Source: Patescibacteria group bacterium
Lineage (GTDB): Bacteria > Patescibacteriota > Minisyncoccia > Minisyncoccales > Staskawiczbacteraceae
Direction: 5' to 3'
Length of the DNA stretch: 64,000 nt
Assembly (NCBI GenBank): GCA_018829965.1
Contig: JAHJTG010000008.1
Span: forward strand, 9,314-73,313
Each line of letters starts with the position of its first letter. Position 1 is the stretch's first letter. The notes below the pieces were generated by a model. The model was not told the DNA's origin and did not search any database. It saw only the letters and a list, made by a program, of their open reading frames with translations. Shown one piece after another: positions 1,387-51,490 of the stretch. The position numbers and the translations under genes are program-made.

Positions 1387-1422
1387 TTTAGGGTATAGGG
1401 TTTAGGGTTTAGGGTATAGATT
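1387..1422. repeat. Heptamer-type repeat (GGGTTTA/GGGTATA units), family C
   Basis: tagggtatagggtttagggtttagggtatag in the dnaX-gtrA spacer. Related to the CCTAAAT arrays elsewhere in the window. Confidence 0.6.
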
Positions 1423-5650: not shown

Positions 5651-5697
5651 AATCCTAAATCCTAATTTCTAAATCCTAAATAAATCCAAAATCCAAA
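5651..5697. repeat. Heptamer array (AATCCTA/AATCCAA units), family C
   Basis: aatcctaaatcctaatttctaaatcctaaataaatccaaaatccaa directly 5' of the recR ATG. Confidence 0.7.
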
Positions 5698-7386: not shown

Positions 7387-7388
7387 CA

Positions 7389-8501
7389 TCAGAGCCCTCT
7401 TTTGGCTTTTCTTAATTTTTCAAACAAACAAGTGAGCCAGTATTTTTTTGAAATAATATAGTCCTGCGTTTTAATAAGCTCCCGGCGATAACCGCCGAAT
7501 CCCATTTTGAATAAAGTTAAACCATCCCACGGGTGTTTTTTGTTTAAAATTTTAAATTTAGAATTTCGGATTTGTTTAGGATTTAGGATTTCGGATTTAG
7601 GATTTACATTTTTTGTGTCGACGAAAAATGGCGATATTCCCCAAAAATTATATATTTCGCATCCCATCTTCTTTGCTTCTTTTATCGCCTCCCAGTGCAA
7701 AAGATAATTGACTGGTATTTTTGAATATTTAGTTAAAGAACCGCTATGATGATAAAAAGCAATGTTTTGCCAAAAAACAAAAATAGCAACAGAGATAATC
7801 TCTCCTTTATACTTCCCGAAGAAAATCTGAATCTGGTTATCCTTATTAAACGCTGAAAATTGATTTTTTAAGTATTTGATTGGAAAAACCACGAATTTAT
7901 GGCGTTTTGCTGTTTCTAAATAAACTGGAATAAACTTATCTAAGTCATCTATATTATTGCTTTTTACAATCTGAATATCTGGATTCTTTTGCGCTTGACG
8001 GATTAAATAACGGGTTGTTTTTCGCATTCCAGCGAGAAGTTCTTCTTCGGTGATGCTAATATCTAATTCCCACGTTACTTCAGCATGCATATGAATCGGC
8101 GCTTGTCTGAAACCCAAGTCTTTAAATATTTTGATATTATTCTCATCTCTTTCCCAAAAAGGAGCAATTCTAATAAAGCTCGCTTTTTCTTCTTGCGCTA
8201 TTTCTTTAAGTTTAGTTAGTAAAATTTCTAATACCTTATTTTTGGAAATTGGAAATTGGAAATTGGAAATTATATTTGGTCCATGAGGAACAAATAAAAA
8301 CGTTCCTCGCCTCGCAGATACCTTAGCGACTAAAGCCACGCCGACTAAATTTTCGTCATCATAAACACCGAATCTCCAAATTTTGCTTTTTTGCAATATC
8401 TGAAACTCTCCCCAATCCCACGATTGGAGGAATGTCTTTTCTTTAATGCCTACAAAGAAATCCTCCCAAATCTTTTTTTCCTTAATTTCTTTTATTTCCA
8501 T
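7389..8501 (-). CDS. FemAB-family peptidoglycan bridge-formation (aminoacyl-tRNA-dependent) transferase
   Basis: Size and overall pattern of Fem/MurM-like proteins (..SWDWGEF.., ..TRY.IRQA.., ..YHHSGS..). Contains two heptamer arrays. Confidence 0.7.
   Translation of the reverse strand: MEIKEIKEKKIWEDFFVGIKEKTFLQSWDWGEFQILQKSKIWRFGVYDDENLVGVALVAKVSARRGTFLFVPHGPNIISNFQFPISKNKVLEILLTKLKEIAQEEKASFIRIAPFWERDENNIKIFKDLGFRQAPIHMHAEVTWELDISITEEELLAGMRKTTRYLIRQAQKNPDIQIVKSNNIDDLDKFIPVYLETAKRHKFVVFPIKYLKNQFSAFNKDNQIQIFFGKYKGEIISVAIFVFWQNIAFYHHSGSLTKYSKIPVNYLLHWEAIKEAKKMGCEIYNFWGISPFFVDTKNVNPKSEILNPKQIRNSKFKILNKKHPWDGLTLFKMGFGGYRRELIKTQDYIISKKYWLTCLFEKLRKAKRGL
7548..7617. repeat. Heptamer array (TTAGGAT/TTCGGAT units), family C, inside the FemAB-like CDS
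   Basis: tttagaatttcggatttgtttaggatttaggatttcggatttaggattt; translated as NPKSEILNPKQIRNSKFKILN. Confidence 0.75.
8244..8271. repeat. (GGAAATT)x4 perfect tandem heptamer inside the FemAB-like CDS
   Basis: ggaaattggaaattggaaattggaaatt. Confidence 0.9.
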
Positions 8502-20129: not shown

Positions 20130-20194
20130 AAACTAAGTTTTCGTTTAATTATTTTACCCTGTTAGAGGTTTTATGTAAACAAAAAGAGCGCTAT

Positions 20195-20305
20195 TGTGGC
20201 AACTACCTACTTTCGCGACAAAATCACTATCATCGGCCTTAGAGTATTTCACTTCCGAGTTCGGAATGGGATCGGGTGGGACAACTCTAGTATAGTCGCC
20301 ACAGC
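20195..20305 (-). rRNA. rrf: 5S rRNA
   Basis: Reverse complement reads gcuguggcgacuauacuagaguugucccacccgaucccauuccgaacucggaagugaaauacucuaaggccgaugauagu..., the canonical 5S core. Confidence 0.9.
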
Positions 20306-21461: not shown

Positions 21462-21523
21462 ACTAGGGTCAGAGCCTCTCAAAACTCTACGATCGCGGTA
21501 GATAAGGACCAACCTGTCTCACG

Positions 21524-22214
21524 CATATTTGTCATTTATTACTAAATGTATGGACTATACCACTACCCAAATTAATTGGGTAATCGACGTTTTAGCCGCC
21601 GTTAGGCGACTCCGACCGATTAAGGTCAAGTCTCTACGGGGTCGATGTATACACCTTTCGATTCTTTGAATAATTTAATTCACGAAAAGTATCAATTAAT
21701 TTAGCAAGTTTATTAAAATCTTTCTGGCATTTAACTTTACTTTTTTGAACAATAATTTTTTTCAGGAGATTTATTTGAGCTTTCTTCATTAATACATACG
21801 GGCCAACGAGTCCGATAAATTTATTTATCCCCTCTTGGGTCCCAATAATATATTCGAGAATTCCATCTTTTCTAACCCTTAAATATCCTAAATTAATTAA
21901 AGCACAAACTTTAGCAAAATTATTTTGGTTTTTCTGTGATTGGAATAACACAATGTAATTTACAACTTGGAAACCATACTTATAAGTTTTGTTTGGTTTT
22001 AGTTGCGCATATACACTACCATCCCCATCAAGAAATCCAGCCAAATATGATCTTTGTGTTTGCGAAATTAATTTTTTCATACACGACTTCCCTCGGTATT
22101 ATCCTATCATACGACAGATTATAATGAAAGGACTTCACCGATATGAGTCGATTTATTCACTGTAATATTACTATTACAGGCCGCCTAGCTTGTTAACAGA
22201 TCAAGCTTTAGTCG
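21524..22214 (-). mobile_element. Group I intron in 23S domain V (after ~U2593, the I-CreI-type site)
   Basis: Exons rejoin as GGGUUCAAACCGU|CGUGAGACAGGUUGG. Core elements AAUACCGAGGGAAG, CCCCGUAGAGACUUGAC, GGUAUAGUCC. Confidence 0.85.
21634..22080 (-). CDS. LAGLIDADG homing endonuclease, I-CreI family
   Basis: SYLAGFLDGDGSVYAQLKPNKTYKYGFQV aligns by eye with I-CreI YLAGFVDGDGSIIAQIKPNQSYKFKHQL; 148 aa. Confidence 0.9.
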   Translation of the reverse strand: MKKLISQTQRSYLAGFLDGDGSVYAQLKPNKTYKYGFQVVNYIVLFQSQKNQNNFAKVCALINLGYLRVRKDGILEYIIGTQEGINKFIGLVGPYVLMKKAQINLLKKIIVQKSKVKCQKDFNKLAKLIDTFRELNYSKNRKVYTSTP

Positions 22215-22307
22215 ACGGTTTGAACCCAGCTCACGTAACACTTTAATTGGCGAACAGCCAAACCCTTGGGAGCGGCTTCACCCCCAGGATGTGTTGAGCC
22301 GACATCG

Positions 22308-22592
22308 CTGTCGGTAATTTTTCTCTCCTTACAGAGAGGTTCGGACTATATCTTCACCCTTTCTCAATAAGAAAGGGGCTGGCGTGTTAGCTCTCCAATT
22401 TTTTGGAGAACTCCGACTATTAAAAGTCAAGTCTCTACAGGGTTATAACCCAATCTTTTTAAGAATTGAGTTAAACTTCCCACGGTATTATCGTTTAGTT
22501 TTACTAATTTTACCATATGAACTAAGTACGATTCCACCGTTATAAGCCAGATTTTTGGTATAGCATTACTGCTATAGCACCCCGATTTGTTA
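22308..22592 (-). mobile_element. ORF-less group I intron in 23S domain V (after ~U2500) with a homing-endonuclease-gene relic
   Basis: Exons rejoin as GUUCGGCACCU|CGAUGUCGGCUC. Keeps AAUACCGUGGGAAG, CCUGUAGAGACUUGAC, GAUAUAGUCC. Only an 18-codon remnant (MGSLTQFLKRLGYNPVET*) lies between them. Confidence 0.8.
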
Positions 22593-23209
22593 AGGTGCCG
22601 AACAGAGCCGTCGCTATGGACGCTCGGGCTCTACCAGCCTGTTATCCCCGGAGTAGCTTTTGGTTGATGATCTTTCGCGGTTCTAATAACCACGATCGGT
22701 TCACTAAGTTCTGGTTTCCCAACTGCGCGACATATCCGTCTTGCAGTAAAGCCGGCATTTGGCTTTGCCCTATCGCTCCGATTTCCATCCGGAGCTAGCC
22801 GACCTTATAAACGCCTCCATTACCTTTTAGGAGGCAAGTGCCCCACTTAAACTGCCCATTAAACACTGTCTCCGCCTAAGGCGGATTAGAATCAGGGTTT
22901 TTAAAGGATGGTGTTTCATCGGCGACTCCACCCTGTCCGAAAACAAGGTTTCAAAGTCTCCCATCTACGCTACGCATTAAAAACCAAAACTCAATATCTA
23001 ACTACAGTAAAGCTTCCGGGGTCTTTCCGTCTAGCCGCGATTAACCGGCATCTTCACCGGTATTGCATTTTCACCGGGCTCCTCGTTGAGACAGTTCTCT
23101 AGTCGTTAAGCCATTCATGCGGGCCGGAACTTACCCGGCAAGGGATTACGCTACCTTTGGACGGTTATAGTTACCGCCGACGTTCACTGGTGCTTCAATC
23201 AATGAGCCC

Positions 23210-23320
23210 CACTCCGCTCCTTACTTCGTAAGAGCTTCGAAGGGGCAGGTATTCTTTTTTTCAGAATACTTGTCCTGCGTAGCTTTTTTTACGAAACAAA
23301 AAGCGAAGTAGGACCCTCAA
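23210..23320 (-). repeat. 23S hairpin insertion 1 (domain IV, ~E. coli 1860 region)
   Basis: ~110 extra nt relative to E. coli, with nested hairpins (caggtattc-ttttttt-cagaatacttg). Confidence 0.6.
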
Positions 23321-23427
23321 CTTTAACATTCCAGCACTGGTCAGGCTTCACCCCCTATACATCCTCTTACGAGTTAGCAGAGAGCTGTGTTTTTGATAAA
23401 CAGTCGCTAGAGATACGTTAGCTGCGT

Positions 23428-23572
23428 CCCACCGCACCTCGCTATGCTCGGTACTACCGCGGATTAACACGGATTTTAACTGATTAACACGGATAAAATA
23501 TCCGTATGAATCCAGTCGTATCCGCATGTATCCGTGGTACCAAACGCAGTGAGGTACGGTAGGAAGGCCATA
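23428..23572 (-). repeat. 23S hairpin insertion 2 (variable helix ~E. coli 1730)
   Basis: Outer arms cctcgctatgctcgg / ccaaacgcagtgagg enclose CGGAT-rich modules (family I, also at 38245-38300). Confidence 0.7.
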
Positions 23573-24712
23573 TTGCGAACTTACGGCCGCTTTTTTGCCG
23601 AGTTCCTTAACGAGGAATCACCCGTTCATCTTGGCACACTTACGCCGACCCACCTGTGTCGGTTTACGGTACGGTTCCCATTTTTTTAACCCTACGAGCT
23701 TTTCTAGACAACGCGCTCATCCGAATCGCCAGTGCCGAAGCACCAACTTTTCTCATTCCTTAGATTACTCCTAAGAACAAGAACATAAATCCAATAATTT
23801 GCTCGGACTACTGTGTTGTGTCACTCTTCAGAAAAAAATGGAAGGGACGGAATATTAACCGTCTAACCATTAGGTACGCCTTTCGGCTTCCCCTTAGGAC
23901 CGCCTAACCCTTGGCTGATTGCCATTGCCAAGGAACCCTTGGGTTTTCGATGTCCCGGTATTTCACCGAGATTGCGGTTACTCATGCCAACATTCTCTCT
24001 TCTTAACGCTCCACCAGACCTCACAGTCTAGCTTCGCAGCGATAAGAATGCTCTCCTACCACGCATAAAAACCTGAGTTTCTATGCATCCATATCTTCGG
24101 TATTAAGCTTTAGTCCCGATGAATCTTCGGCGCACTTTGCCTATATAGGACAGTGAGTTGTTACACACTCTTTAAAAGATAGCTACCTCTAAGCTAACTT
24201 CCTGCCTGTAAAGGGCAAAATACTTCCTTAATCTACACTTAGCTTAATTTTGGGACCTTAGATGATGATCTGGACTGTTCTCCTTACGACCATGGAGCTT
24301 AGCCCCCACAGTCTAACTGCCTTTTTGACGATGCTGGTATTCGGAGTTTAATTAGAATATCTGAGCGAAGCCCAAGAAATTCTATTTAGTGCTCTACCCC
24401 CAGCACCTAAACAAAAGACGCTAGCCCTAAAGCTATGTCGGAGAGAACCAGCTATTACCAAGCTCGATTAGCTTATCACTTCTTACCACAGGTCATCCCA
24501 GAGTATTGCACGGCTCAAGGGTTCGGACCTCCCCCGCTCTTTCGAGAGGGTTCATCCTGCCCATGGCAAGCTCGCCTGGCTTCGGGTCTCAACCACTCAG
24601 CTTAATTGTTTGCGCTATTAACGCTCGCTTTCGCTATGCCTCCACCCCGTAAGGGTTTAGACTAGCTGAGTAACTGAACTCGTTGGCTCGTTCTGCAAAA
24701 AGCACGCCATCA

Positions 24713-24898
24713 CCAGCCACATCTCGCTGCGCTCGATGTGTCTGGAAACCCTAAATCCTAAATCCGAAATCCTAAACAATAACTAAAATCCAAAATCAAA
24801 AACTTATTTTAAATTTGAAATTTAGAATTTGGAATTTGTTTAGAGTTTCGTGTTTAGTGCTTAGAATTTCCGCATCGAACAAAGTGAGATGCGGCCAG
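24713..24898 (-). repeat. 23S hairpin insertion 3 (helix 25 region, ~E. coli 540)
   Basis: Outer arms catctcgctgcgctcgatg / catcgaacaaagtgagatg enclose inverted heptamer arrays of family C. Confidence 0.7.
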
Positions 24899-25286
24899 CT
24901 CTGACTCGTTGTAAGCAAATGGTTTCAGGTTCTATTTCATCGGGGTCGCCCCCCTACTTTTCACCTTTCCCTCACGGTACTGGTTCACTATCGGTAATAT
25001 TGAGTATTTAGCCTTGGCCGTATAGTTCGGCCTGATTCCTGCCAGGTTATCATTCCCGACAGTACTTAAGTAAAATAGCAAGGAGCGTAAAGTCGTTTTC
25101 GTCTACAGGACTATTACCTTCTATGGTCACCCTTTCCAGGGTTATTTGACTAACGAAAAATTTATTCTTGCAGAGCAAAAATAAATTTACACTTTACCAA
25201 AATGTTCTCCCTCGGATAGAATCCAGCACTCTTTAACGTTTCAAAAAGTACTGGATGCTCCCGACGCTAAATCCTTGCAACCCCAA

Positions 25287-25425
25287 TCGCTCGCGCCTCG
25301 CTATGCTCGTCGCTTCGCTCTCCTACCAATTACGAATTTTTTCGAATTACGAATATTCGTAATTAGTTTAAATTGGTAATTCGTAGGAAGAGTAAGTGCC
25401 GAACGCAGTAAGGCACGAACGAATG
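25287..25425 (-). repeat. 23S hairpin insertion 4 (domain I, ~E. coli 270 region)
   Basis: Outer arms gcctcgctatgctcg / cgaacgcagtaaggc enclose ACGAAT modules of family B. Confidence 0.7.
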
Positions 25426-25471
25426 GTTTGGGCTCTTCCCTTTTCGCTCGCCACTACTAAGGGAATAACTG

Positions 25472-25747
25472 GTCCTACATCTCACAAATTCCGCTAAATT
25501 TAGAAACGAAATAATGCGCTAAATTCAAGACGCGATGACGAAACGCATAAGTGAAACGATGCGTTGAGGAAGAGCCTCGCAGAAGTTAGCCATTATTTCG
25601 CTTCCCTTTCGGGCGGGCGAATTCTGGACATATTCTTTGTTGCTCGTCGCTCACGTATCGCGTTGCTTATACGCTGTCGCTCCTCGCGTCGCGAATCTGT
25701 CGCAGAATTCGCTTCGCTAAATTAGTGCAATTTGTGAGATGCAGGAC
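25472..25747 (-). repeat. 23S insertion 5: 276-nt element with 19-bp terminal inverted repeats (domain I, ~E. coli 215)
   Basis: gtcctacatctcacaaatt ... aatttgtgagatgcaggac (18/19 complementary), with an internal gcgaattctg/cagaattcgc hairpin. No ORF and no group I core. Confidence 0.75.
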
Positions 25748-26333
25748 ATTTGTTCTCTTTTCCTCTGGGTACTGTGATGTTTCGCTTCCCCAGGTCTACC
25801 CCTAACCTTGCGGTCAGGTAATCCCGTTCTGCGGGATTGGGTTGCCCCATTCAGAAACCTCCGGATCAAAGGTTGCTAGCCACCTCCCCGAAGCTTATCG
25901 CAGGCACGCCACGTCTTTCATCGCCTCAATATTCCAAGGCATCCACCATTTGCCTATAAAATTATTTTCTTTGCGTAAGTTTATTCAACAATATAAATAC
26001 TGCTGAATGAATAGATACAGATTTTAGATATCTATTACTATTATATTTTTAGATGATTCTTTACTCTGTTAAAAAAAGACCCCTGTCTAAAGTTTAACAG
26101 AGTGGCCTAATTATATCTTTTTAAAAAAAGCAAGATTATAATTAGGGTTGTATTTTCAAAGTTCTTGATAAATATACTATTCTTAAAAAATTAAAAACCG
26201 CCTAGTTAAAGCGGTCCATCAGACATATACCCGCCTGCATCGCCTGTGGCGAAAGCCACTGCGGGCAGGCAAAAACTCGGAGTTTAACCGCTTCTTTTTC
26301 TAAAAATGGTTTTAATATTTATCATGTAAGGTT

Positions 26334-26362
26334 ATATTATTCTATAAATAAAAACGTGTCAA
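26334..26362 (-). promoter_or_regulatory. Candidate sigma70-type promoter for the 23S-5S unit
   Basis: Minus strand reads TTGACA-17 nt-TAATAT, ~360 nt upstream of the 23S 5' end and upstream of the processing stem. Confidence 0.45.
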
Positions 26363-26499
26363 GCCTTTCACCCTTTAAAAGAAGGTGTAGGGCACAGACC
26401 ATTGTCCTCCTGACGCGAAACTGGATCAATAATTTATGATATTATATACAAAATCTGTCACACAATATTGGGAGACCCGACCTCCCAATTAAATTAATT

Positions 26500-26533
26500 G
26501 AAAACAAAGCCCGGTCGCCTTAGGCGACCGGGC
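26500..26533 (-). terminator. Rho-independent terminator after the 26560-27240 gene
   Basis: gcccggtcgcc-taa-ggcgaccgggc hairpin followed (minus strand) by uuuguuuu. Confidence 0.7.
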
Positions 26534-26559
26534 TAATGTTTTCAATACTGAAAATTTAT

Positions 26560-27240
26560 CTATTTAATCTTTCTCTTTAAGTTCTCAATTGCTTGAGCTG
26601 CAGCATCTTTTCCACCTAAACCGAAAGCCAACATAACCGAACCGGCAATAGCGGCAACAATACCATAAACTATACCCTTGTATAGAATCTGGACTAAATC
26701 TGATTTTGGTAATAATTGATCTAAGATCATGAATATTAAGAAAATCCAAATTGTCCATCTTACGATAGAGGCTGCTAAATGAGCGTAACCGATTTTCATT
26801 TTCTCAACTGTTGCTCTTACTAACTTTTCTACGATATCAGCAATAACTACACCGACTACAAAAATTAAAACAGCGATAATGATGTTTGGGATATAGTTTA
26901 AGATATCCCTTAGAAGTTCTCCAAATTTAGTTAAATTTAGAATATCAACTGTTAATAATAATGTGACGATTACAAATATCCATTTAACGATAGCTCCAAT
27001 AAAAGCAGACGGATCCACTTTTATATCAGCTTTCTCAATGGCTTTCTGCCAACCTTCTTTTTCAAAAAGACGGTTGAATTTTAGTCCCTTCAAAAGTTCG
27101 GTTATAAATCTGCCGATTCCGACAGAGATGATATAGCCGATAACGAAGACAATTATTGCTATTATAAGTTGAGGAAGAAACGAAACCAATTCTTTAAGAA
27201 ATGGTTGTATAATTGTTACGTACCATTCTGGTGTTACCAT
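26560..27240 (-). CDS. Polytopic membrane protein (repeated TM-helix type, possibly mechanosensitive-channel-associated)
   Basis: ~6 TM helices with internal repeats; no catalytic motif. Confidence 0.5.
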   Translation of the reverse strand: MVTPEWYVTIIQPFLKELVSFLPQLIIAIIVFVIGYIISVGIGRFITELLKGLKFNRLFEKEGWQKAIEKADIKVDPSAFIGAIVKWIFVIVTLLLTVDILNLTKFGELLRDILNYIPNIIIAVLIFVVGVVIADIVEKLVRATVEKMKIGYAHLAASIVRWTIWIFLIFMILDQLLPKSDLVQILYKGIVYGIVAAIAGSVMLAFGLGGKDAAAQAIENLKRKIK

Positions 27241-27411
27241 ATTTATTTTAGGTTTAATTATCGATTTATTAATAAATAATTCGACCTTTATAAATTAGGC
27301 TTCTTGTCTGCCTGCGGTAGATCTCCCAAAGGGAGACAACCAGCCTAATCGTTAAACATTATTTTATTATGTGCTTATCTGCCTAAGAATCAACCCCTTA
27401 TGTGGATAATT

Positions 27412-28500
27412 CTATCCATGCTTTATCTCAATCACATCTCCGTCTTGAATGATATATTCCTTTCCTTCTGTTCTTATTAATCCCCTCTCTCTTGCCTTAG
27501 AAAAACCGCCGGCTTCAATCAAATCTTTCCAATTAATAACCTCGGCTTTAACAAACGTCTTTTCAAAATCGCTATGGATTACTCCTCCTGCTTGCGGAGC
27601 CATCTCCCCTCTTTTTATTGTCCAAGCACGCGTCTCATCTGTCCCAGTTGTCAAAAAAGTAATTAGACTTAACAGCTCGTAAGATTTTTTAACTAAAATA
27701 TCTGTTTCTGACTCTGGAGGAAATCCCAAAGAGATTCTTTCTTCTTTTAAGAAACCTGCTGTTTCAAATTCTGAAGCGATGTCTACTATTAAATACGGCC
27801 AACTTGTCTCGCCAGAATTGGCTGGGTTATTCTTTTTAAAAACCTCTAAAGTATTTTGATCCACCTCCTCATCTTTTCCGTTTAAAAGATACAGCCTTGG
27901 TTTTAATGTTAATAATTGAAAACTATCCAAAATTTTCTTCTCTTCATCTGTAAAGCTTTGCTCAACTAATATTTTTTCTTCAGTTAAAAATTCTTTTGCT
28001 TTTTTTAATACTTCCATTTCCTTAATCGCCTCCTTCCTATTAGCCCTTACATCACCCTCCAAGCCATGTATTCTTTTCGTAATAGTATCTAAATCTTTTA
28101 AAATTAATTCTACGTCTAAGATCCCTTTATCTCTTAATGGACTTATTGATTCTTGCGTGTTAATAATATCGGAATTAGAAAAAGCGCGAAGGATATATAT
28201 GATTGCATCTGTTTCACGAATATTTGCTAAAAACTTGTTTCCCAAGCCTTCGCCTTCGCTCGCCCCTTTTACCAAGCCGGCGATATCAACAAACTCAATG
28301 GTTGTATAAATCTTCTTTGCAGAACTAGTTAATTCAGCTAATTTATCAACTCTTTCGTCTGGAACCAAAACAACCCCTACATTAGGGTCAATTGTACAAA
28401 AAGGATAATTAGCAATATCCACTTCCTTTTTGGTTAATGTTTTAAATAGAGTGGACTTACCTACATTCGGTAATCCTACAATGCCTATACTAAGTGCCAT
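27412..28500 (-). CDS. ychF: Ribosome-binding ATPase YchF
   Basis: G1 GLPNVGKST, NYPFCTIDPN, DIAGLV.GAS.G.GLGN.FL, C-terminal TGS-like domain. Confidence 0.95.
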   Translation of the reverse strand: MALSIGIVGLPNVGKSTLFKTLTKKEVDIANYPFCTIDPNVGVVLVPDERVDKLAELTSSAKKIYTTIEFVDIAGLVKGASEGEGLGNKFLANIRETDAIIYILRAFSNSDIINTQESISPLRDKGILDVELILKDLDTITKRIHGLEGDVRANRKEAIKEMEVLKKAKEFLTEEKILVEQSFTDEEKKILDSFQLLTLKPRLYLLNGKDEEVDQNTLEVFKKNNPANSGETSWPYLIVDIASEFETAGFLKEERISLGFPPESETDILVKKSYELLSLITFLTTGTDETRAWTIKRGEMAPQAGGVIHSDFEKTFVKAEVINWKDLIEAGGFSKARERGLIRTEGKEYIIQDGDVIEIKHG

Positions 28501-28529
28501 TTATAAATTTTTAAAATTATTTTTTTATA

Positions 28530-28883
28530 TTAAAACCTATAAATATTGCCCTCCGATGGAGTTTCAATATTAGTATTTGCTAAAACTTTTTTTATTCTCT
28601 CTGCTTCATTTTCAATTATTTCCCCGTCGTATTCTCCACTATGACTATGCGCTCCACTATTTTCATATGAAGCAAACTTCTGATCTAAATGAAGATTGAA
28701 GATAAACTCGTTATGGTCCTCATCTTTTTTTATAAACACATGGAATCTCGGGTAACCATATCCCCTGCTTAAATCCTTAACAAGGCTTTCTTCGCCGTTC
28801 TCGCTTTTTCTGCCAATCTTATATCCAATCTTCTTCGCCATATTTACAATAGTTTCGTTAGTGTTTTTAACTATAAATTTCAT
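28530..28883 (-). CDS. Hypothetical protein (117 aa; start moved to Met66 of the tracked ORF)
   Basis: The ORF-track N-terminus reads through tRNA-Ala and repeat DNA. MKFIVKN... begins 8 nt downstream of the tRNA. Confidence 0.5.
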   Translation of the reverse strand: MKFIVKNTNETIVNMAKKIGYKIGRKSENGEESLVKDLSRGYGYPRFHVFIKKDEDHNEFIFNLHLDQKFASYENSGAHSHSGEYDGEIIENEAERIKKVLANTNIETPSEGNIYRF

Positions 28884-28891
28884 ATTATTTA

Positions 28892-28962
28892 TGGACCCTG
28901 CGAGAATCGAACTCGCATCTCCTCGTTGCAAACGAGGTGTGCTACCACTATACCAAGGGCCC
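28892..28962 (-). tRNA. tRNA-Ala (anticodon UGC)
   Basis: Acceptor GGGCCCU/AGGGUCC with the G3:U70 identity pair; anticodon stem CCUCG/CGAGG with loop UUUGCAA; T arm GCGAG-UUCGAUU-CUCGC. Confidence 0.85.
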
Positions 28963-28965
28963 ACC

Positions 28966-29060
28966 AAAGCTATCGAGAATCTTCGATTTCTTTCAGAAAT
29001 CGGGACAAATGTCCCGATGGCTGTTGCCATCGCGGATGCTCGATTTTGCTCGGCAAAATC
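28966..29060. repeat. Family A module cluster (GTCCCGAT / TCGAGnATCnTCGA words)
   Basis: atcgagaatcttcgat, tttctttcagaaatcgggac, gtcccgatggctgttgccatcg, cgattttgctcggcaaaatcg: concatenated small hairpins. Confidence 0.75.
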
Positions 29061-29092
29061 GGCAAGGTGTTCTACCACTAAACTAAAGCCCC
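29061..29092 (-). pseudogene. Orphan tRNA 5' half (acceptor strand, U8, D arm, start of anticodon stem)
   Basis: GGGGCUU-UA-GUUU-AGUGGUA-GAAC-A-CCUUG then runs straight into family A repeats. No matching 3' half (CAAGG... AAGCCCC) before tRNA-Ala. Confidence 0.5.
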
Positions 29093-29093
29093 C

Positions 29094-29423
29094 CTAATTT
29101 ATCCCCCAGAATTTTATTATTTGGACATCATCTAACCCCCAAATTCTCATTAGAATAAAATCCTTGAAATCGCTTATAATTATACCCATACTCAAAAAAA
29201 TCAAAACGTATCCAACATATTTTCTGCTTTTTTTAAAAAACAAATAAGATAAACTGATAAATAACAATAACAACCCAAATATCCAATGATGCGGAATCCA
29301 TATTATCTGCCCCCCAATGATATGCCCTATTCTCCCGATAGCATATCCCATAAACACTGCGAAGGTATATATAAAATATTTTATAGACATTATTGCTCTT
29401 AATAATATCTTACCTTTTTCCAA
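29094..29423 (-). CDS. Small membrane protein
   Basis: Three predicted TM helices; 109 aa. Confidence 0.5.
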   Translation of the reverse strand: MEKGKILLRAIMSIKYFIYTFAVFMGYAIGRIGHIIGGQIIWIPHHWIFGLLLLFISLSYLFFKKSRKYVGYVLIFLSMGIIISDFKDFILMRIWGLDDVQIIKFWGIN

Positions 29424-29483
29424 TAGTTTTTCAAGCCAGCAGGCGCAGGATTGCCAAGCACTAATCTACGGATAGTGCTCGGC

Positions 29484-29512
29484 TAAAACAAAAAACCGCA
29501 TTTCACGGTTTT
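29484..29512 (-). terminator. Rho-independent terminator downstream of the 16S gene
   Basis: aaccg-ugaaau-gcgguu hairpin followed by uuuuuguuuu on the minus strand. Confidence 0.6.
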
Positions 29513-29698
29513 TTGTTTTAGTTTCTTAAAGCTGTTTCGAATATCCGATTTTGACGATTTCGTACAGTAGCAAGCTGTATGAAACATTACTTCGGTAAAC
29601 GTTTTAACTTGAAATCCAAATTTAAGACTTCAAATTAAGTCGACAAAAAAATATAAAAAAATTGATCCACGACCAGGTTCCCCTAGCCGTGCCTTGTT

Positions 29699-30477
29699 CA
29701 TGCTATTCCCCTATATCGCTATAAGGCATGGACTATATCATCATCCTTTCACAAAATATTTTTGACTTTACTGGATGGTAAGAATTTACAATTTTAGCAA
29801 ATCTCTCGTGATGTTTAGTAGAAACAAATATTCTCCAATAATCAGGGTCAACTTTTTTACTCGGATTATGGATTTTTCCAGTTTCTATCTTTAAACTTTT
29901 GAGAAGTAACTTTAATTGCTTGATTTTGCTTAAATCCTTTTGGACTAACTGAATATAAAATCTGTCTTTTGTATGAGGAACGCCACCTTCGGCGTCAAAA
30001 AATCCTTTTACATAAAACAATTTTTCATAATAGTTATCCAAATTTATAGGATTAAATTTGAAATCTAAGTCTTTACAAAGTGTCTCTAAAACATACATAT
30101 TTCTATCCTTTCCCTCTTTGTAAATCCATGATTTGCAATTAATTTTACCTAGCAAAATTTGTAAATTTTCCAACCACTGCTTATTTTTCTGGGAGAATCT
30201 AATTCTCTTTCCTTTGTTTAAAGAGGCATCATGAATCGCTCCATTTAAATAAGCTATAATCTCATATTTTGTGGTAGGAGTTCGGCGTGTAGTCTCTGAG
30301 GGGTCAATTCTAATTTTATTAGAACGACTTCCCTGCTGATTGTCTGCACTAGAAACATTTTCACTCATATTATCTTATTATAATATGAGTAGTCCTAGAT
30401 TCACAGATGTTCCAGCATACAGCCAACTTTTTCTCTAAGGGTTACCCCTATGAGGTCGCAACATGCAGATTGCACTG
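29699..30477 (-). mobile_element. Group I intron in 16S after U1498 (decoding centre, inside the 1492R primer site)
   Basis: Exons rejoin as GGGGCUAAGUCGU|AACAAGGCACGG. ACAAUCAGCAGGGAAG and CCCCUCAGAGACUAC lie 5' of most of the ORF; GAUAUAGUCC lies 3' of it. Confidence 0.85.
29733..30368 (-). CDS. LAGLIDADG homing endonuclease (double-motif)
   Basis: IIAYLNGAIHDAS and VKGFFDAEGGV motifs. The tracked N-terminus reads through intron core elements, so the true start is uncertain. Confidence 0.8.
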   Translation of the reverse strand: MSENVSSADNQQGSRSNKIRIDPSETTRRTPTTKYEIIAYLNGAIHDASLNKGKRIRFSQKNKQWLENLQILLGKINCKSWIYKEGKDRNMYVLETLCKDLDFKFNPINLDNYYEKLFYVKGFFDAEGGVPHTKDRFYIQLVQKDLSKIKQLKLLLKSLKIETGKIHNPSKKVDPDYWRIFVSTKHHERFAKIVNSYHPVKSKIFCERMMI

Positions 30478-30893
30478 ACGACTTAGCCCCTCTTATTAAG
30501 CCCAGCGTAGGATCCCGTAAACGGGACACTTCGGCTGTTCCTAACTCGCTTGGCTTGACGGGCGGTGAGTACAAGACTCAGGAACATATTCATCGCCGCA
30601 TAGCTGATCGGCGATTACTAGCGATTCCAACTTCATGAGGGCGGGTTTCAGCCCTCAATCCGAACTAAGACCGATTTTGGTGGGATTTGCTTCACCTTGC
30701 GGTTTTGCGTCCCATTGTCTCGGCCATTGTACCACGTGTGCGGCCCAAGTCATCAAAGGGCCATGCTGATTTGGCGTCATCCTCGCCTTCCTCCCAGTTG
30801 TCCCGGGCAGTCCCCTATGACATATAAAACATAGGGCAAGGGTTGCGCTCGTTACCCGAATTAACGGTACGTCTCAAGACACGAGCTGACGAC

Positions 30894-31713
30894 CATATTG
30901 ATCTATAATTTCTTATAGTATGGACTATACCATCTTCCATCCGCCTGAGGCGGATTAGGAGACCAGCGTTTAATGATAGGTTATATCATTAAGTTTTCTC
31001 GCCTTTAGAGAAAACTAAGTCTCTACGGGGTATAAAAACTAATTTTTGTAATTTTATCGAATAATTATAAATTTTTTCTAAAAATTCTCTTGCCTGGTAT
31101 CGCGAGATATAAAGGCAAAATGTCTTTGCTGTTTTGTAGTAATAAATTTTTGTATTACTAATTCCTATCCTTAAAAGAAGACTTTTATCAATTTCTGCTT
31201 CATTTTTATTTCCATATACTATCCTGCAATCATTTCTAAAGTTCTTATCGATTGAACCGTCTCCATCAAACCTTCCTGCAAAATATGCATTAATTAAATT
31301 ATCTTTTTCTAATTTAATTAAATTATTTCGTGCCTCTCTAAATTCTCTCAGGAATGGACGGCTATTAACAAAAATATGATTTCTATTAAATTTTATCCTA
31401 TCTTCAGAAAAAAACTTCAATAGAAAATCTTTAAACTTGGCTATCAAAGCAGGGTCTACATTACTTAGACCAATCGAACTTGACCACCAATAACTATCTG
31501 CACACCAAAGTCCTAAGATATAAGAATCTTCTTCTCTAGAGAAAAAATTACAAAAATTAGTTTTTATACTTCCCACGGTATTGCCATTAATTATTATATT
31601 TTAACATAATAATTAGAAGGTTTCACCGTTATGAGCTGGTTTTTTACCGTATTAAAATAAATTAGTACGGGGCATTTCACTAAAAATTACTTTTTAGTGG
31701 GTCGTTATAACAC
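30894..31713 (-). mobile_element. Group I intron in 16S helix 34 (after ~U1060)
   Basis: Exons rejoin as GGUGCUGCAUGGUU|GUCGUCAGCUCGUG. Core elements AAUACCGUGGGAAG, CCCCGUAGAGACUUAG, GGUAUAGUCC. Confidence 0.85.
30989..31576 (-). CDS. LAGLIDADG homing endonuclease (double-motif); GTG start
   Basis: YILGLWCADSYWW and AYFAGRFDGDGSI motifs; 195 aa. Confidence 0.85.
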   Translation of the reverse strand: MGSIKTNFCNFFSREEDSYILGLWCADSYWWSSSIGLSNVDPALIAKFKDFLLKFFSEDRIKFNRNHIFVNSRPFLREFREARNNLIKLEKDNLINAYFAGRFDGDGSIDKNFRNDCRIVYGNKNEAEIDKSLLLRIGISNTKIYYYKTAKTFCLYISRYQAREFLEKIYNYSIKLQKLVFIPRRDLVFSKGEKT

Positions 31714-31981
31714 AACCATGCAGCACCTGTTCTGCTGCCTTGTGGGGGGCCATCCTTTCAGACGGCTTTCAACAGAATTTCTAGACTTGGTAAGGTTCTT
31801 CGTTTGTTGTCGAATTAAGCCACATGGTCCACCGCTTGTGTGAGTCCCCGTCTATTTCTTTGAGTTTTAGCCTTGCGGCCGTACTTCCCAGGCGGATCAC
31901 TTAACGCATTAGCTTCGCCACTGACAGGGTCGACACTGCCAATAGCCAGTGATCATCGTTTACAGCGTGGACTACAAGGGT

Positions 31982-32961
31982 CATCTTGTAGTTTTTTCTT
32001 ATTTCTTCGATTACTCGAAGGATCGGACTATATCATTTTCTGAAGTTTTTCCATTTGTTTTTCTTTTCAGTAATATATTTTTCTACTACTGCTTTAGAAA
32101 AACCTGTCAATTCACTAACTTCAGAAATCCAGCGTTGTTGTAAATCATGGTCTTTGTAAATAATCAAGACCTTCGGTAGCATTTCTGCCACTTTTATATG
32201 CGGCATTATAATCCGCAAAAACTTCTTTAACTCTTCGCTTGAGCGAATCCATAAACGATAATATATTCTTTCTTCATTCATCCATTTTCTAGTTATTTTA
32301 CCAATATGAACATTTATGTCCCATACTTTTTTTAAGTAATTAGACAATAATTTTTGCTCTTCATAAGAAAAACAATCTGTACAAAATACTCCCTTCCTTC
32401 CATTACCTATTATAGATCCATCATCAAGCCACCATATCGCTAAAGATAAAGGAGTTATTGCATTAAGCCACTTACGGCTAATTTTAAATACTCCTTTTTT
32501 ATGAGTTAAATCATATAACTCTGTTAATTCTGGTATTGCTACGCTTTGATATCGCAATTTTTGACCGCCAAATCCATCTTTTATTTCTGATTTCCAAAAA
32601 TAGTTTTCCCCGGAAATTTCCTTTAATTCATTTACTTTCCAGAAAAAATATTCCTTTTGCTTGATAGAATGACGGAAAGAAAAACGAGCATTTTTATAAT
32701 TATCGTTAATCTTCAGCGATCCATCGCCTAGCAAAGAACCAAGAATAATATCTTTGCAATTTTTAGACAAAAATGAATTTTTCATTTTCTATCTTTTTGA
32801 CTTACATAGTCTCTACGGGGTCGCTATCTTAAAAAGACGCGACTTCCCTCGGGATTATCCATCCGACTAAAATGGGTTTCCCCGATACAGCTAGATGCTC
32901 ACCATATTGTCACCAATATGGAGGACACCATTTAGTCTGTTAATTTCACAGACAAGGATTT
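31982..32961 (-). mobile_element. Group I intron in the 16S 790 loop (after U793, inside the 806R primer site)
   Basis: Exons rejoin as GGAUUAGAU|ACCCUUGUAGUCCACGC. AAUCCCGAGGGAAG and CCCCGUAGAGACUAUG precede the ORF; GAUAUAGUCC follows it. Confidence 0.85.
32033..32785 (-). CDS. LAGLIDADG homing endonuclease (double-motif, with C-terminal helical extension)
   Basis: IILGSLLGDGSL and LAIWWLDDGSI motifs; 250 aa. Confidence 0.9.
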   Translation of the reverse strand: MKNSFLSKNCKDIILGSLLGDGSLKINDNYKNARFSFRHSIKQKEYFFWKVNELKEISGENYFWKSEIKDGFGGQKLRYQSVAIPELTELYDLTHKKGVFKISRKWLNAITPLSLAIWWLDDGSIIGNGRKGVFCTDCFSYEEQKLLSNYLKKVWDINVHIGKITRKWMNEERIYYRLWIRSSEELKKFLRIIMPHIKVAEMLPKVLIIYKDHDLQQRWISEVSELTGFSKAVVEKYITEKKNKWKNFRK

Positions 32962-33239
32962 ATCTAATCCTTTTTGATCCCCACGCTTTCATTCCTCAGT
33001 GTCAGAATCGTCCCAGCTAACTGCCTTCGCTTTTGGTGTTCCCGACGATATCAACGGATTTCACCCCTACACCGTCGGTTCCGTTAGCCTCTAACGTCCT
33101 CTAGTCAAATAGTATCTTTAGCAATTCAAAGGTTAAGCCGATGAGTTTTAACTAAAGACTTATTTAACCACCTACGAATCCTTTATGCCCAGTAAATCCG
33201 GGTAACGCTCGGGGGTTCTGTATTACCGCTCCTGCTGGC

Positions 33240-34072
33240 CGAATAACGAAAAATTATTCGTTTTGGACTATATCATCACCTCGCTTCAGCGAGGGTTCGG
33301 CGTCTGATGATGGGTTCAAATACCACCATCTCATCCACTTAAGGATTCAGTCTCTGAGGGGTTAAAGCACAATAAGGTAATCTTTTTGAAAAACACGAAA
33401 TAATATTCGGAGAGATCAAATTTAAAAATTTATCTCTTCCTTTTGCCCCGATATATATTTCAGGATATCTTTTGCCTCTGCAAAGAGGCGTATGAATATT
33501 GGATTCTATTCCGAAGTTTTTCTTTAAAACCTCAACCAATAATTTATTCTCTTCGACGCTAAATGCATTTGTGCAAAAAGAAAAATTATAATGGTCTTTC
33601 GGTCTGAAATCTAAACTTCCATCGTCCATATACCATACAGCTAAACTTAATGGAGAAATTAATAACTCCTGAATGTTTTTTGGAACAATTTTCTTTCCAT
33701 TTTTATAAAATATTTCTTTGTATCTAGAGATATCTTCTAAAAATTTCGTTTGAAAATACCATTGCTTATTATCTTTCCTCTGTTTTGGCGAACTTTTGCA
33801 TAAATTTTCAAAGCAAGAATATAACCAGAATACATATTCTTTATGTGCTTCTGATTGTTTTATTCTCAAGCATTTTCCATCTATCCAAGCATCGCCCAAA
33901 AGAGTGCCGATAATAATTTCGTGTTGTTTCTTTGTCATTACCTAATTATACTCAACTTCCCTGCTGATTGTCACATTAAAATTATCAACTTTGTGATAAA
34001 GGAGCATTAATGTGCTTTCCAGCATATAAGCCGAATTTTGATTCTGCGCCCGCCAACCTTCATGGGTTGGCC
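33240..34072 (-). mobile_element. Group I intron in the 16S 530 loop (after U516, inside the 515F primer site)
   Basis: Exons rejoin as CCUAAUUCUGU|GCCAGCAGGAGCGGUAAUAC. Core elements ACAAUCAGCAGGGAAG, CCCCUCAGAGACUGAAUCC, GAUAUAGUCC. Confidence 0.85.
33339..33938 (-). CDS. LAGLIDADG homing endonuclease (double-motif)
   Basis: IIIGTLLGDAWI and LAVWYMDDGSL motifs; 199 aa. Confidence 0.9.
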   Translation of the reverse strand: MTKKQHEIIIGTLLGDAWIDGKCLRIKQSEAHKEYVFWLYSCFENLCKSSPKQRKDNKQWYFQTKFLEDISRYKEIFYKNGKKIVPKNIQELLISPLSLAVWYMDDGSLDFRPKDHYNFSFCTNAFSVEENKLLVEVLKKNFGIESNIHTPLCRGKRYPEIYIGAKGRDKFLNLISPNIISCFSKRLPYCALTPQRLNP

Positions 34073-34371
34073 ACAGAATTAGGACCCCCTTATTCCTTCG
34101 GTACTGTCAGTCGCCAAAGGCGACTTCCTCCCGAAGAAAAGAACTTTACACTCCGAAGAGTTTCTTCATTCACGTAACGTCGCTCCATCAGGCTTTCGCC
34201 CATTGTGGAAGATTCTCGACTGCAGCCTCCCGTAGGAGTATGGCCCGTGTCGCAGTGCCATTGTTGGGGAACACGCTCTCACGCCCCCTACCCGTCATAG
34301 TCTTGGTAGGCCGTTACCCTGCCAACTAACTGATAGGCCGCAGGCCCATCTCAAAGTGGATTGCTCCTTTA

Positions 34372-34498
34372 CTCCTCCTTCGCTCTTCATTCCATTCAGA
34401 GCTACGACGGACGAGCCTTGCTTTACGCTTGCAAAGTATAAATACCTTGCGGCTTTGTCCATCTGAAGCTTTTTATGAAATAAAAAGCGAAAGAGGAG
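34372..34498 (-). repeat. 16S hairpin insertion (~E. coli 190-220 region)
   Basis: ~125 extra nt bounded by ctcctccttcgc / gcgaaagaggag inverted arms; no ORF. Confidence 0.65.
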
Positions 34499-34952
34499 AC
34501 TATCGGAAATTAGCCAATCTTTCGACTGGTTATGTCCGTCTTTGAGGTTGGTACCTACGTGTTACTAACCCGTTCGCCACTGACCCTTGCGGGTCCGTTT
34601 GACTTGCATGCCTTATCCACGTTACCAGCGTTCACCCTGAGCTAGAATCAAACTCTCAAAAAATTGAAGTTTGATTTAAAAGAAAATAAATTCTCTTTTG
34701 AATCTAGTTACAATGTGATAGCTTTATTCGAAACAACTTTAAAAAACTAATTATTTATCCAGTTTAAATAGGTTATTTTAAACTGGGGTGCATTATTAAT
34801 TTATCAATGTACGGGGTATTTGTTTTGAAAAACAAATCCCGAAGATATCCATCTTTACTTAAAGATAAATATCTTCGGGGTTCATTCAACCATTTTAAAT
34901 TTTAATTCTCCATCAATTTATATTTTTTATTTATTTTTTATATGCAATTACT

Positions 34953-36726: not shown

Positions 36727-36737
36727 ATTTTAATTGA

Positions 36738-37067: not shown

Positions 37068-37235
37068 TTGTCCCGATTTTCGGTCTGCCGAAAATCGAGA
37101 ATCCTCGATTTATTTTTAATTTAAAAAATAAACCGGGAGATGAATGTCTTTCTTCATGTTTCCTACGAATTACGAATATTTTCGAATTACGAATTCGTAA
37201 CATTACATAAAATTCGTAAATTTGAATTATGTTTA
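37068..37235. repeat. Family A plus family B modules in the rpmE-prfA divergent spacer
   Basis: gtcccgattttcggtctgccgaaaatcgagaatcctcgat, then cctacgaattacgaatattttcgaattacgaattcgtaa. Confidence 0.75.
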
Positions 37236-40892: not shown

Positions 40893-40950
40893 AAAATTCT
40901 AAATTCTAAGCACTAAATCCTAAATAAATTCAAAATTCAAATATTTAAAT
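40893..40950. repeat. Heptamer array, family C
   Basis: aaattctaaattctaagcactaaatcctaaataaattcaaaattcaaat; shares tttagtgcttagaattt with the 23S insertion at 24.86 kb. Confidence 0.7.
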
Positions 40951-40973
40951 TATTGTGGCATTGCCACATAATC

Positions 40974-41063
40974 ATTTCGCTCGGTTGAAATGAAAATTTC
41001 GGTTGTCAAAAATAAAAGTAAATTTTTATTTTCTCCTTTCTCAATTTTCATTTTTCCTCACTC
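40974..41063 (+). repeat. Family E element (AAAGTAAATTT core), copy in + orientation
   Basis: ~85% identical to the reverse complement of 43321-43408. Confidence 0.85.
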
Positions 41064-41080
41064 ATGATTATAAACACTTT

Positions 41081-41141
41081 TGGATTTTGGGTTTTGAAAT
41101 TTGGGCTTATTTAGAGTTTAGAATTTGGGATTTGGGATTTA
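41081..41141. repeat. Heptamer array, family C (supplies the ferredoxin C-terminus)
   Basis: tggattttgggttttgaaatttgggcttatttagagtttagaatttgggatttgggattt. Confidence 0.7.
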
Positions 41142-41356: not shown

Positions 41357-41375
41357 ATAATGTATAAAAAAATAA

Positions 41376-42239: not shown

Positions 42240-42315
42240 ATCCTACGAATTACGCTGGACCCCGCAGGGGACTCCCCGAAGGGTTGCTTAAATCGAATTA
42301 CGAATTTCTAATACT
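42240..42315. repeat. Family B (ACGAAT) module with a GC-rich hairpin
   Basis: tcctacgaattacgctggaccccgcaggggactccccgaagggttgcttaaatcgaattacgaatttc. Confidence 0.7.
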
Positions 42316-51486: not shown

Positions 51487-51490
51487 TTTT

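Follow-up and report, generated by a model that had tools for sequence, protein, structure and literature searches.

Intervening sequences (IVSs) of bacterial 23S ribosomal RNA (rRNA) genes are sporadically distributed stem-loops that replace tetraloops and are cut by RNase III, with helix 25 (H25) as a classic site (PMC4990558), and they are suspected to descend from mobile elements (PMC4990558; PMC2801512). In the Candidate Phyla Radiation (CPR), Tsurumaki et al. 2024 reported that 82% of 23S genes contain insertions, and the available part of their report describes short non-intron insertions lacking open reading frames (ORFs), mostly below 200 bp and in some cases at IVS sites, for which the authors propose an IVS nature (PMC11270868). 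Organelles provide a further parallel, because genome-wide palindromic repeats lie within the large subunit (LSU) rRNA coding module L8 of Volvox carteri mitochondrial DNA (PMC2670323) and, according to the accessible text of PMC2800124, hairpin elements invade the rRNA genes of sponge mitochondria. Here we examine a 64,000-nucleotide stretch of DNA (hereafter the window) from contig JAHJTG010000008.1 of a Patescibacteria group bacterium, whose 23S gene carries extra sequence at five places, termed blocks B1 to B5, relative to E. coli 23S.

Our analyses indicate that B1 to B4 are probably young IVS-type composites made from small palindromic DNA elements, whereas B5 is an older conserved element. 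The blocks resemble the IVSs of Salmonella, Campylobacter, Leptospira, Coxiella and the alpha-proteobacteria in forming stem-loops at helix tips, in their terminal inverted repeats, in their sporadic spread and, for one block, in the use of H25. Unlike those IVSs, they number five in one gene, four of them outside H9, H25 and H45, carry no ORF for an S23p or IVS protein (IVP), and are composites that include repeats of the host genome as cargo; in addition, known IVSs are excised by RNase III, whereas for the present blocks such excision is a prediction. With the class of PMC11270868 they share a CPR host, their status as inserts relative to E. coli, the lack of a group I or group II model match and the lack of an ORF, although B1 and B2 exceed E. 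coli by approximately 90 nt and thus fall just below the 100-bp cut-off used there. The available part of that report describes no shared arm unit, genome-repeat cargo or conserved element at E. coli position (Ec) 227/233 for its class. Short ORF-less insertions in CPR 23S genes are therefore already published, and the arm unit, the genome-repeat cargo and B5 appear to be new as far as was checked.

Five hairpin blocks and the corresponding sites in related genes

An earlier reading of the window, made from the letters alone (the sequence-only reading), proposed five ORF-less hairpin blocks with approximately 860 extra nucleotides. Comparison with E. coli bears this out at all five places (Table 1), with a net excess of approximately 890 nt. 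Each block folds as a single long hairpin that is far more stable than its shuffles, with z values of -7.3 (B1), -8.0 (B2), -10.5 (B3), -10.7 (B4) and -9.6 (B5, minimum free energy -125). No ORF longer than 59 amino acids (aa) overlaps any block, and an Rfam scan of the blocks returned no family beyond generic sub-threshold hairpin models. A permissive Rfam search of the B4-B5 region and of six loci with the arm unit described below likewise gave only sub-threshold matches to miRNA-like hairpins. Among the sites H9, H25 and H45, only H25 is occupied, by B3, in agreement with the earlier description of this helix as a classic IVS site (PMC4990558), and no insert was found at H9 or H45 in the window; B1 (H68), B2 (H63), B4 (Ec271) and B5 (Ec227/233) lie elsewhere. 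The region Ec270-305 measures 289 nt versus 34 nt in E. coli, of which B4 itself makes up 139 nt, and relatives likewise have much of the other extra sequence around B4 (H16-18 region), although its form varies among them.

Related 23S genes were chosen by means of a YchF or MscS-like neighbour 70-86% identical to that of the window, and they are designated by L-numbers, which denote loci from related genomes or metagenomes. The first round covered L002, L003, L005, L006, L007, L009, L029, L030 and L036 by the 23S gene or its 5' portion, and the second supplied L206-L212. Some of these genes are partial, L003 and L207 were grouped together, as were L208 and L209, and each of the B1 to B4 sites is covered by approximately 9-15 relatives. 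The genes that extend over the sites of B1 to B3 come from L002, L003/L207, L029, L030, L206, L208/209, L210, L212 and the partial genes. No relative with an MscS-like protein more than 86% identical was found in the protein collection searched. The near relatives retain the gene order YchF - MscS-like - 23S - 5S - MreC.

At the sites of B1 to B4, where the window has hairpins of 100-190 nt, the aligned relatives carry short hairpins, mostly capped by tetraloops of the GCAA or TCGG type. H25 is a short tetraloop-capped helix (for example GATCC-GCAA-GGATC in L002, and again with GCAA in L003), H63 ends as CC-GCAA-GG in L002 and as T-TCGG-A in L003, H68 reads GCC-GCAA-GGT, and a short hairpin with a small loop is found near Ec271. 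B1 to B4 thus have the anatomy of IVSs, in which an extended stem-loop takes the place of a small terminal loop and is sporadic among relatives. Because homologous inserts are absent from every related 23S gene that reaches these sites, B1 to B4 are, by this comparison, recent and lineage-specific and not conserved expansion segments. Inserts of the same arm type were found only in the window, in L005 and in L130, the latter two with other cargo, and H25 of L009 holds an unrelated insert of approximately 75 nt.

Two further places in these genes vary by lineage. A sixth small hairpin of approximately 38 nt (~25160-25199, H16-18 region) is missing in L002 and has other sequences in its place in L003 and L212; the L212 hairpin adjoining this site is built of TAGTTCT-type heptamers. 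L208 and L209 carry an insert of approximately 110 nt between Ec129 and Ec182 in the helix 9-10 region (~11895-12058 in L208 coordinates), which is the classical IVS site of alpha-proteobacteria; this insert has no arm unit and is of unrelated sequence.

B5 has a different history. L003 (and L207) hold a 286-nt insert at the same site that is 93% identical over 258 nt by BLAST, and the insert of L009 is 79% identical. The consensus fold of the three sequences is Y-shaped, with an outer stem of approximately 30 bp and two long inner hairpins, and the outer stem reads CATCTCAC/GTGAGATG, CACTTCAC/GTGAAGTG and CAACTTAC/GTAAGTTG in the three species. Compensatory changes occur in 15 of 99 B5 pairs, and between the window and L003 the aligned B5 columns are 90.6% identical versus 83.2% for all aligned 23S columns. 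B5 is present in 3 of approximately 13 species; it is cleanly absent from L002, L029, L206, L208, L210 and L212, and its site is occupied by a different, arm-type insert in L005 and by unrelated inserts in L030 (~110 nt) and L007 (~27 nt). The sequence-only reading had extended its mobile-module interpretation to all five blocks and had set them apart from ordinary lineage-specific expansion segments. The latter distinction holds for B1 to B4. It fails for B5, as does the mobile-module interpretation, since relatives share this insert at the same site, its pairs covary, and it shows no similarity to non-rRNA loci: the best match in the window with the 23S gene removed was reached by 94 of 100 dinucleotide shuffles. 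For these reasons B5 is best described as a conserved structured element, which on comparative grounds is older, under constraint and shared with at least two other species. The long, near-perfect outer stem, whose pairs covary, would suit a processing signal that has been maintained as well as a role in structure.

Arm units and repeat cargo

Three blocks were originally thought to share one outer arm pair. When at most one mismatch is allowed, the pair CCTCACTGCGTTYGG / CCGAGCATAGCGAGG occurs in the whole 64 kb only in B2 (23540-23554 and 23437-23451) and B4 (25399-25413 and 25296-25310), and B3 belongs with them only as a diverged copy that forms local stems of 6-7 bp around loops at 24877-24887 and 24724-24734. 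The outer stem of B1, judged by eye, is a degenerate arm copy with one deleted base. Each arm is itself a small hairpin of approximately 20-25 nt, in which a short stem surrounds an 11-nt loop (GAGCRNAGYGA or its complement). Examples are GTACC-TCACTGCGTTT-GGTAC in B2, GTGCC-TTACTGCGTTC-GGCAC in B4, and both GCATC-TCACTTTGTTC-GATGC and CATC-GAGCGCAGCGA-GATG in B3.

The same arm pair bounds inserts with different cargo in other CPR 23S genes, namely at Ec227/233 and Ec271 in L005 and at H63 in L130, where its orientation with respect to the rRNA is reversed. Its occurrence on either strand argues for a palindromic element at the DNA level and against an RNA motif tied to one strand. Elsewhere in 1.2 Mb of related CPR loci, the arm unit with a stem of 4 bp or more was found once, as an intergenic inverted pair in L015. 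The proposal that the arms form a genome-wide module is thus not sustained for this lineage, in which nearly all of them are located inside 23S inserts, and this restriction to rRNA inserts fits an rRNA-specific role and mobility equally well.

Outside this lineage, a metagenome scan with the 15-mer of the 5' arm returned at least 120 matches, some of which may be due to chance because a 15-mer is short for such a collection. Most of the matches listed share the context (A)GAT[TC]CCTCACTGCGTTCGG[AG]ATGAC on contigs of 28-72% GC. Among the matches listed, the unit often forms an inverted pair that encloses a GC-rich hairpin and is located between housekeeping genes unrelated to one another, L130 is the only 23S insert, and most represent a cross-phylum intergenic repeat. 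On account of this recurrent intergenic context, we assign the arms, from their sequence, to a cross-phylum family of small hairpin repeats. A literature search by sequence and a search of Rfam found no published description or family for this repeat.

Several forms of the unit were recorded in the metagenome contigs. A 25-nt unit found among L083-L202 reads GTCATTCC-GAACGCAGTGA-GGAATC, with the general loop GAGCGNAGCGA (examples are L200:1147-1272, L128:795-868, L161 and L116). L169 (~7350-7646) carries three tandem copies of this unit at a spacing of 119 nt, and three variants of it follow one another in L119 (~900-1000). We also considered whether the arms might be the ends of elements encoding an IVS protein (PF05635) or a transposase, and this candidate found no support: the 150 ORFs adjoining the arm unit belong to housekeeping genes of many kinds, and small GIY-YIG genes number only 2-3 among them. 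S23p and 23S_rRNA_IVP were sought as well, and neither an ORF above 59 aa in the blocks nor an IVP match among the 150 neighbours was found.

The cargo between the arms was compared with the rest of the window (23S removed), using 100 dinucleotide shuffles as the reference. The best non-rRNA match scored 50 bits for B3 (shuffle maximum 36) and 52 bits for B4 (shuffle maximum 34). The match of B1 was reached by 5 of the 100 shuffles, and that of the CGGAT-rich cargo of B2 with 38245-38300, which had been put forward as a shared family, by 17 of 100; neither match is above chance, and the proposed sharing of the B2 cargo is not confirmed.

The inner stem of B3 consists of two inverted heptamer modules (~24808-24872 and 24746-24805), and the module is common to loci at 5650, 7543, 40894 and 41078. 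The order of units within it is fixed, with four AAATCCT-type units followed by AAAYAAATCC and then AAAATCC, and the copies share this irregular order together with a non-canonical AAGCACT in the same place. An 18-nt heptamer word has 16 matches at 5 loci versus 0.51 expected, a result obtained in 0 of 100 shuffles, which substantiates the claim that the heptamers recur at four non-rRNA places. A 17-mer said to be shared verbatim with the 40.9-kb locus was also recovered as an exact match. The core of B4 is an ACGAAT palindrome (25321-25388) that matches 37161-37194 at 94% over 34 nt, and the ACGAAT word has 3 matches versus 0.04 expected. ACGAAT units thus do occur outside the rRNA genes, as had been claimed, with a weaker match at 42240-42315. 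Overall, dispersed copies are 86-94% identical over 34-65 nt, at 5 loci for the heptamer module and at 2-3 loci for ACGAAT.

The intergenic heptamer copies include one at 5650 that is 86-88% identical to the copies at 40893 and, within the FemAB-family gene, at 7563. Between the two heptamer modules of the mosaic at 40.9 kb lies a second repeat family (40976-41052), whose other copy is found at 43330-43406. This 77-nt repeat is an imperfect palindrome with 90% identity between copies, and its nested position gives a mosaic that resembles a bacterial interspersed mosaic element (BIME). A 4Fe-4S ferredoxin-like ORF (41150-41365, minus strand) ends within a heptamer module, such that its last approximately 9 codons (KSQIPNSKL) are derived from the repeat. 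Two other repeats were noted in the window. A 113-nt intergenic hairpin repeat (GCGATACCAAT...ATTGGTAT...GTATCGC) is present at 36737-36849 and 51380-51492 with 91% identity, and its words ACCAAT and ATTCGTA resemble the B4 core. A 35-nt repeat is located just upstream of the tRNA-Ala gene (28972-29006) and just downstream of the enolase gene (53877-53911) with 94% identity.

Repeat modules are also present in protein genes, which confirms another observation of the sequence-only reading. The heptamer copy at 7543 lengthens a variable loop of a FemAB-family peptidoglycan-bridge enzyme (ORF 7389..8501, minus strand) by approximately 19 aa. This protein has 370 aa versus 345-350 aa in its homologs, with the extra length exactly at the module; of 12 homologs in the alignment, 11 lack the insert, and P0007 has a shorter related extension. 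Filled and empty orthologous sites are therefore seen both at rRNA helix tips and in the FemAB loop. The enolase gene (53972-55345, minus strand) contains two in-frame palindromic repeats of 79 nt (54732-54810 and 55191-55269, 90% identical), each adding approximately 25 aa (PMV.P.RISR..RGSSTKSGL..VGT) amid an otherwise recognisable enolase. Words related to the enolase repeat (GGATCCTCGAT, GACTTTGTCGGGAC) were noted at the 3' end of prfA (38105-38180). As judged from these in-frame modules, this genome tolerates short repeats within essential genes.

Table 1. Coordinates in the window of the 23S gene body, its five blocks and the copies of cargo repeats
Feature	Coordinates	Strand	Description
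B1	23210..23320	minus	H68 tip, Ec1861/1878; 106 versus 16 nt in E. coli
B2	23428..23572	minus	replaces H63, Ec1704/1770; 159 versus 65 nt
B3	24713..24898	minus	H25 tip, Ec540/548, tetraloop replaced; 179 versus 7 nt
B4	25287..25425	minus	tip of small hairpin near Ec271, Rfam model positions ~274-300
B5	25472..25747	minus	276-nt insert, Ec227/Ec233; region 283 versus 5 nt
23S rRNA main body (Ec 1 to ~2595)	22161..25969	minus	Rfam LSU_rRNA_bacteria, 1844.7 bits; E. coli mapping
Heptamer copy m1	5650..5696	plus	fills whole 46-nt dnaB-recR spacer, ends at recR ATG
Heptamer copy m2	7543..7606	minus	in frame within FemAB-family gene
Intergenic mosaic	40894..41141		inverted heptamer modules 40894-40951 (plus) and 41078-41141 (minus)
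Short heptamer array (CCCTAAA-type)	1389..1419	minus	directly upstream of dnaX ATG, overlaps stop codon of upstream gene
ACGAAT module copy	37160..37235	plus	divergent rpmE-prfA spacer; best match to B4 core
Second ACGAAT-word hairpin	42240..42315	plus	abuts class II aldolase start codon; weaker, 13-14-nt words only

Origin and fate of the inserts

In the arrangement that we propose, the short loop that once closed H68, H63, H25 and the hairpin near Ec271 would in each case have given way to a stem-loop of 100-190 nt, whose outer part is an inverted pair of the hairpin unit and whose inner part is variable cargo. For B3 and B4, this cargo would be drawn from interspersed repeat families of the genome that also occupy spacers and in-frame sites in protein genes. 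Non-autonomous palindromic elements might insert, or be copied by recombination, into DNA encoding helix-tip loops, where they would survive because a hairpin at such a location merely lengthens a solvent-exposed helix. The in-frame modules of the FemAB-family and enolase genes indicate that these repeats can insert into functional genes. The long imperfect duplexes are candidate sites for RNase III cleavage without religation, as suggested by their anatomy and by precedent. If all five blocks were excised, the 23S rRNA would consist of six pieces of roughly 222, 46, 388, 1140, 107 and 1000 nt. The 46-nt piece between B5 and B4 recalls the 7S/3S/23S spacers of the Chlamydomonas chloroplast, and this equivalence was ruled out because the 3S RNA there forms H19-H20 (PMC13481248).

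Several observations weigh against this interpretation. No target-site duplications, intermediate forms or discrete element boundary were recognised in the alignments, in which the flanking stems have diverged. The cargo of B1 and B2 has no outside copies in the window, and a search of 1.2 Mb from related genomes recovered none of the heptamer, ACGAAT and other cargo or repeat families of the window, such that spread of these families between genomes finds no support in the relatives sampled. Heptamer arrays are of low complexity, and a different heptamer-periodic hairpin is present at another 23S site in L212. The arms are almost restricted to 23S inserts in the window and the 1.2 Mb of relatives, and no transposase, or enrichment for nucleases or IVS proteins, was found beside the arm unit among the 150 ORFs. 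A scan of the 64 kb and the related loci also gave no RNase III signature, a result that is uninformative for the whole genome. The earlier proposal of nested insertions of mobile modules is consequently retained in part: the cargo of B3 and B4 belongs to dispersed families (89-94%), whereas that of B1, B2 and B5 has no outside match above chance, and neither target-site duplications nor intermediates were recognised for any of them. Nested insertion is plausible, with recombination or local growth as alternative origins of the composites.

The hairpins could instead have grown in place, if simple words at helix tips had undergone replication slippage and been duplicated in inverted form ('cryptic simplicity'), with the same bias making similar arrays elsewhere and no movement of DNA. 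Such growth would be in keeping with the tandem heptamers of the B3 cargo, with intergenic copies that are often single arms and not hairpins, with the failure to find target-site duplications, with the other heptamer-periodic 23S hairpins in L212 and L005, and with cargo families that are species-specific. However, the copies preserve the same irregular order of units and AAGCACT with 86-94% identity over 34-65 nt, the core built on ACGAAT is more than a plain tandem array, and the arm pair recurs nearly unchanged across species, sites and both orientations, an outcome that slippage cannot produce. We therefore consider growth in place unlikely as the origin of the inserts, although slippage remains a real rival for their heptamer parts. 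Somewhat less doubtful, yet still improbable in our estimation, is the possibility that the hairpins are functional expansion segments that stay in the mature 23S rRNA and serve in its structure or in binding. B5 would be the foremost case, given its presence in three species, its compensatory pairs and an evolution no faster than that of the rRNA overall, and H25 and H63 are the sites of the eukaryotic expansion segments ES7L and ES27L. Nevertheless, homologous B1 to B4 inserts are absent from every related 23S gene examined there, with only arm-type inserts in L005 and L130, B5 is cleanly missing from six relatives, and the conserved long perfect outer stem of B5 would suit a processing signal equally well.

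Two technical or mechanistic explanations have very little to recommend them. A chimeric or mis-joined metagenome contig might be suspected because unitigs of the same organism in Logan assemblies break in the rRNA region, but the flanking stems are intact and each of the five blocks is placed precisely at a helix tip, an assembly of another run contains an identical B5, other genomes have homologous copies of B5, and the arm type recurs in independent metagenome-assembled genomes (MAGs), which makes an artefact highly improbable. One of these unitigs, L204 (ERR2191545; window 30350..25437), matches the window at 100% identity as far as B5 and beyond it, breaking off 12 nt short of B4, and a second, L001, ends in the 5S region; hairpin inserts may interrupt short-read assemblies. 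ENA assembly L203 is identical to the window, and the sequence is also present in Logan assemblies of two runs. The DNA runs and assemblies of this organism have the accessions ERZ27247117, ERR2191545 and SRR6514730. It is just as hard to credit that the blocks are remnants of group I or group II introns that are spliced with exon ligation. CPR rRNA genes are intron-rich, and this same gene has three introns (one match to RF00028 and two with LAGLIDADG ORFs). Yet one search of the B4-B5 region gave no intron-model match at E values up to 5, RF00028 matched only at 22322-22602, the blocks fold as plain hairpins, and they reside in helix-tip loops of variable regions, not at the conserved-core sites typical of rRNA introns.

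Genomic setting and relation to other repeat systems

The window has a GC content of approximately 34% and tightly packed genes, with Pfam matches to MreC, PBP2, EF-Ts, YchF and an MscS-like protein and with LAGLIDADG ORFs within the rRNA genes. All matches from a scan with YchF (one genome per species) were to Patescibacteria/Parcubacteria MAGs, with identities of 81-82% at best, and Candidatus Staskawiczbacteria and Nealsonbacteria are the closest genomes that bear a name. The split rRNA genes and LAGLIDADG ORFs had at first suggested an algal chloroplast, an origin that was rejected in view of the bacterial gene content and the CPR relatives. Downstream 23S exons extend to ~20470, followed by 5S rRNA at 20303..20194. 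Relative to E. coli, the 3' part of the 23S gene (20400-22600) is interrupted three times: by 285 nt without an ORF after Ec2500, which match RF00028 (22322-22602), and by 689 nt near Ec2594 and 760 nt near Ec2658, each with one LAGLIDADG_1 ORF. All three are read as introns, although the intron model matches the first alone, and their sites agree with frequent CPR intron sites given in the available part of PMC11270868. An Rfam scan of the window recovered the 16S rRNA in pieces (34663..30456) and one tRNA-Ala; a tRNA-Ile was not found in the window. The 16S gene (29733-34663) is split by several large insertions with LAGLIDADG_2 and LAGLIDADG_3 ORFs (33938..33339, 32785..32033, 31576..30989 and 30368..29733), and genes for YchF and the MscS-like protein sit between the tRNA-Ala and 23S genes.

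Several classes of repeats invite comparison with these inserts. Rickettsia palindromic elements (RPEs), reportedly described by Ogata et al. in 2000 and 2002, are found between genes, within coding sequences without loss of the reading frame, and in genes for structural RNAs. The window repeats resemble RPEs, as well as repetitive extragenic palindromes (REPs), BIMEs and miniature inverted-repeat transposable elements (MITEs), in being short palindromes with intergenic, in-frame and structural-RNA locations and mosaic modules, although their sequences are unrelated, no associated transposase was identified, and their copy numbers here come from 64 kb. Hancock and Dover are said to have reported cryptic simplicity in eukaryotic rRNA expansion segments. 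Like such segments, the H25 and H63 inserts are built from short repeated words common to segments; eukaryotic expansion segments are, however, retained and keep their positions throughout large clades, whereas B1 to B4 are absent from near relatives. Brown et al. reportedly also treated insertion sequences of CPR rRNA genes in 2015. As far as the accessible text on the sponge elements allows, the organelle repeats of Volvox and sponges are similar in that genome-wide hairpin repeats also lie inside the LSU rRNA coding region, and they differ from the present case, in which a bacterial chromosome has inserts at several separate helix tips and the arm pair is conserved.

Our claim is a modest one because the general phenomenon has been published and the RNA fate of the inserts is predicted from DNA. 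CPR rRNA genes are single-copy and unusually rich in insertions, and their short ORF-less class has so far been little characterized. This locus indicates that some of these inserts are very young, that they have in common an identifiable arm hairpin found at various 23S positions in different species, and that inserts can carry the genome's own repeats, which are also found in frame in housekeeping proteins such as enolase and the FemAB-family enzyme. It suggests a concrete source for bacterial IVSs in palindromic mobile DNA, and the arm motif offers a defined sequence to look for when asking about rRNA fragmentation. A more speculative proposal, which we hold only tentatively and consider rather doubtful, is that the arm unit with loop GAGCGNAGCGA (in other phyla GTCATTCC-GAGCGNAGCGA-GGAATC) is the end of a widespread, unrecognised non-autonomous element or else a conserved cleavage signal, and that in CPR bacteria it specifically colonises 23S helix-tip loops, taking local repeat modules as interchangeable cargo. 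If this were true, the arm unit would define a modular IVS system with a defined recognition hairpin that is used across phyla.

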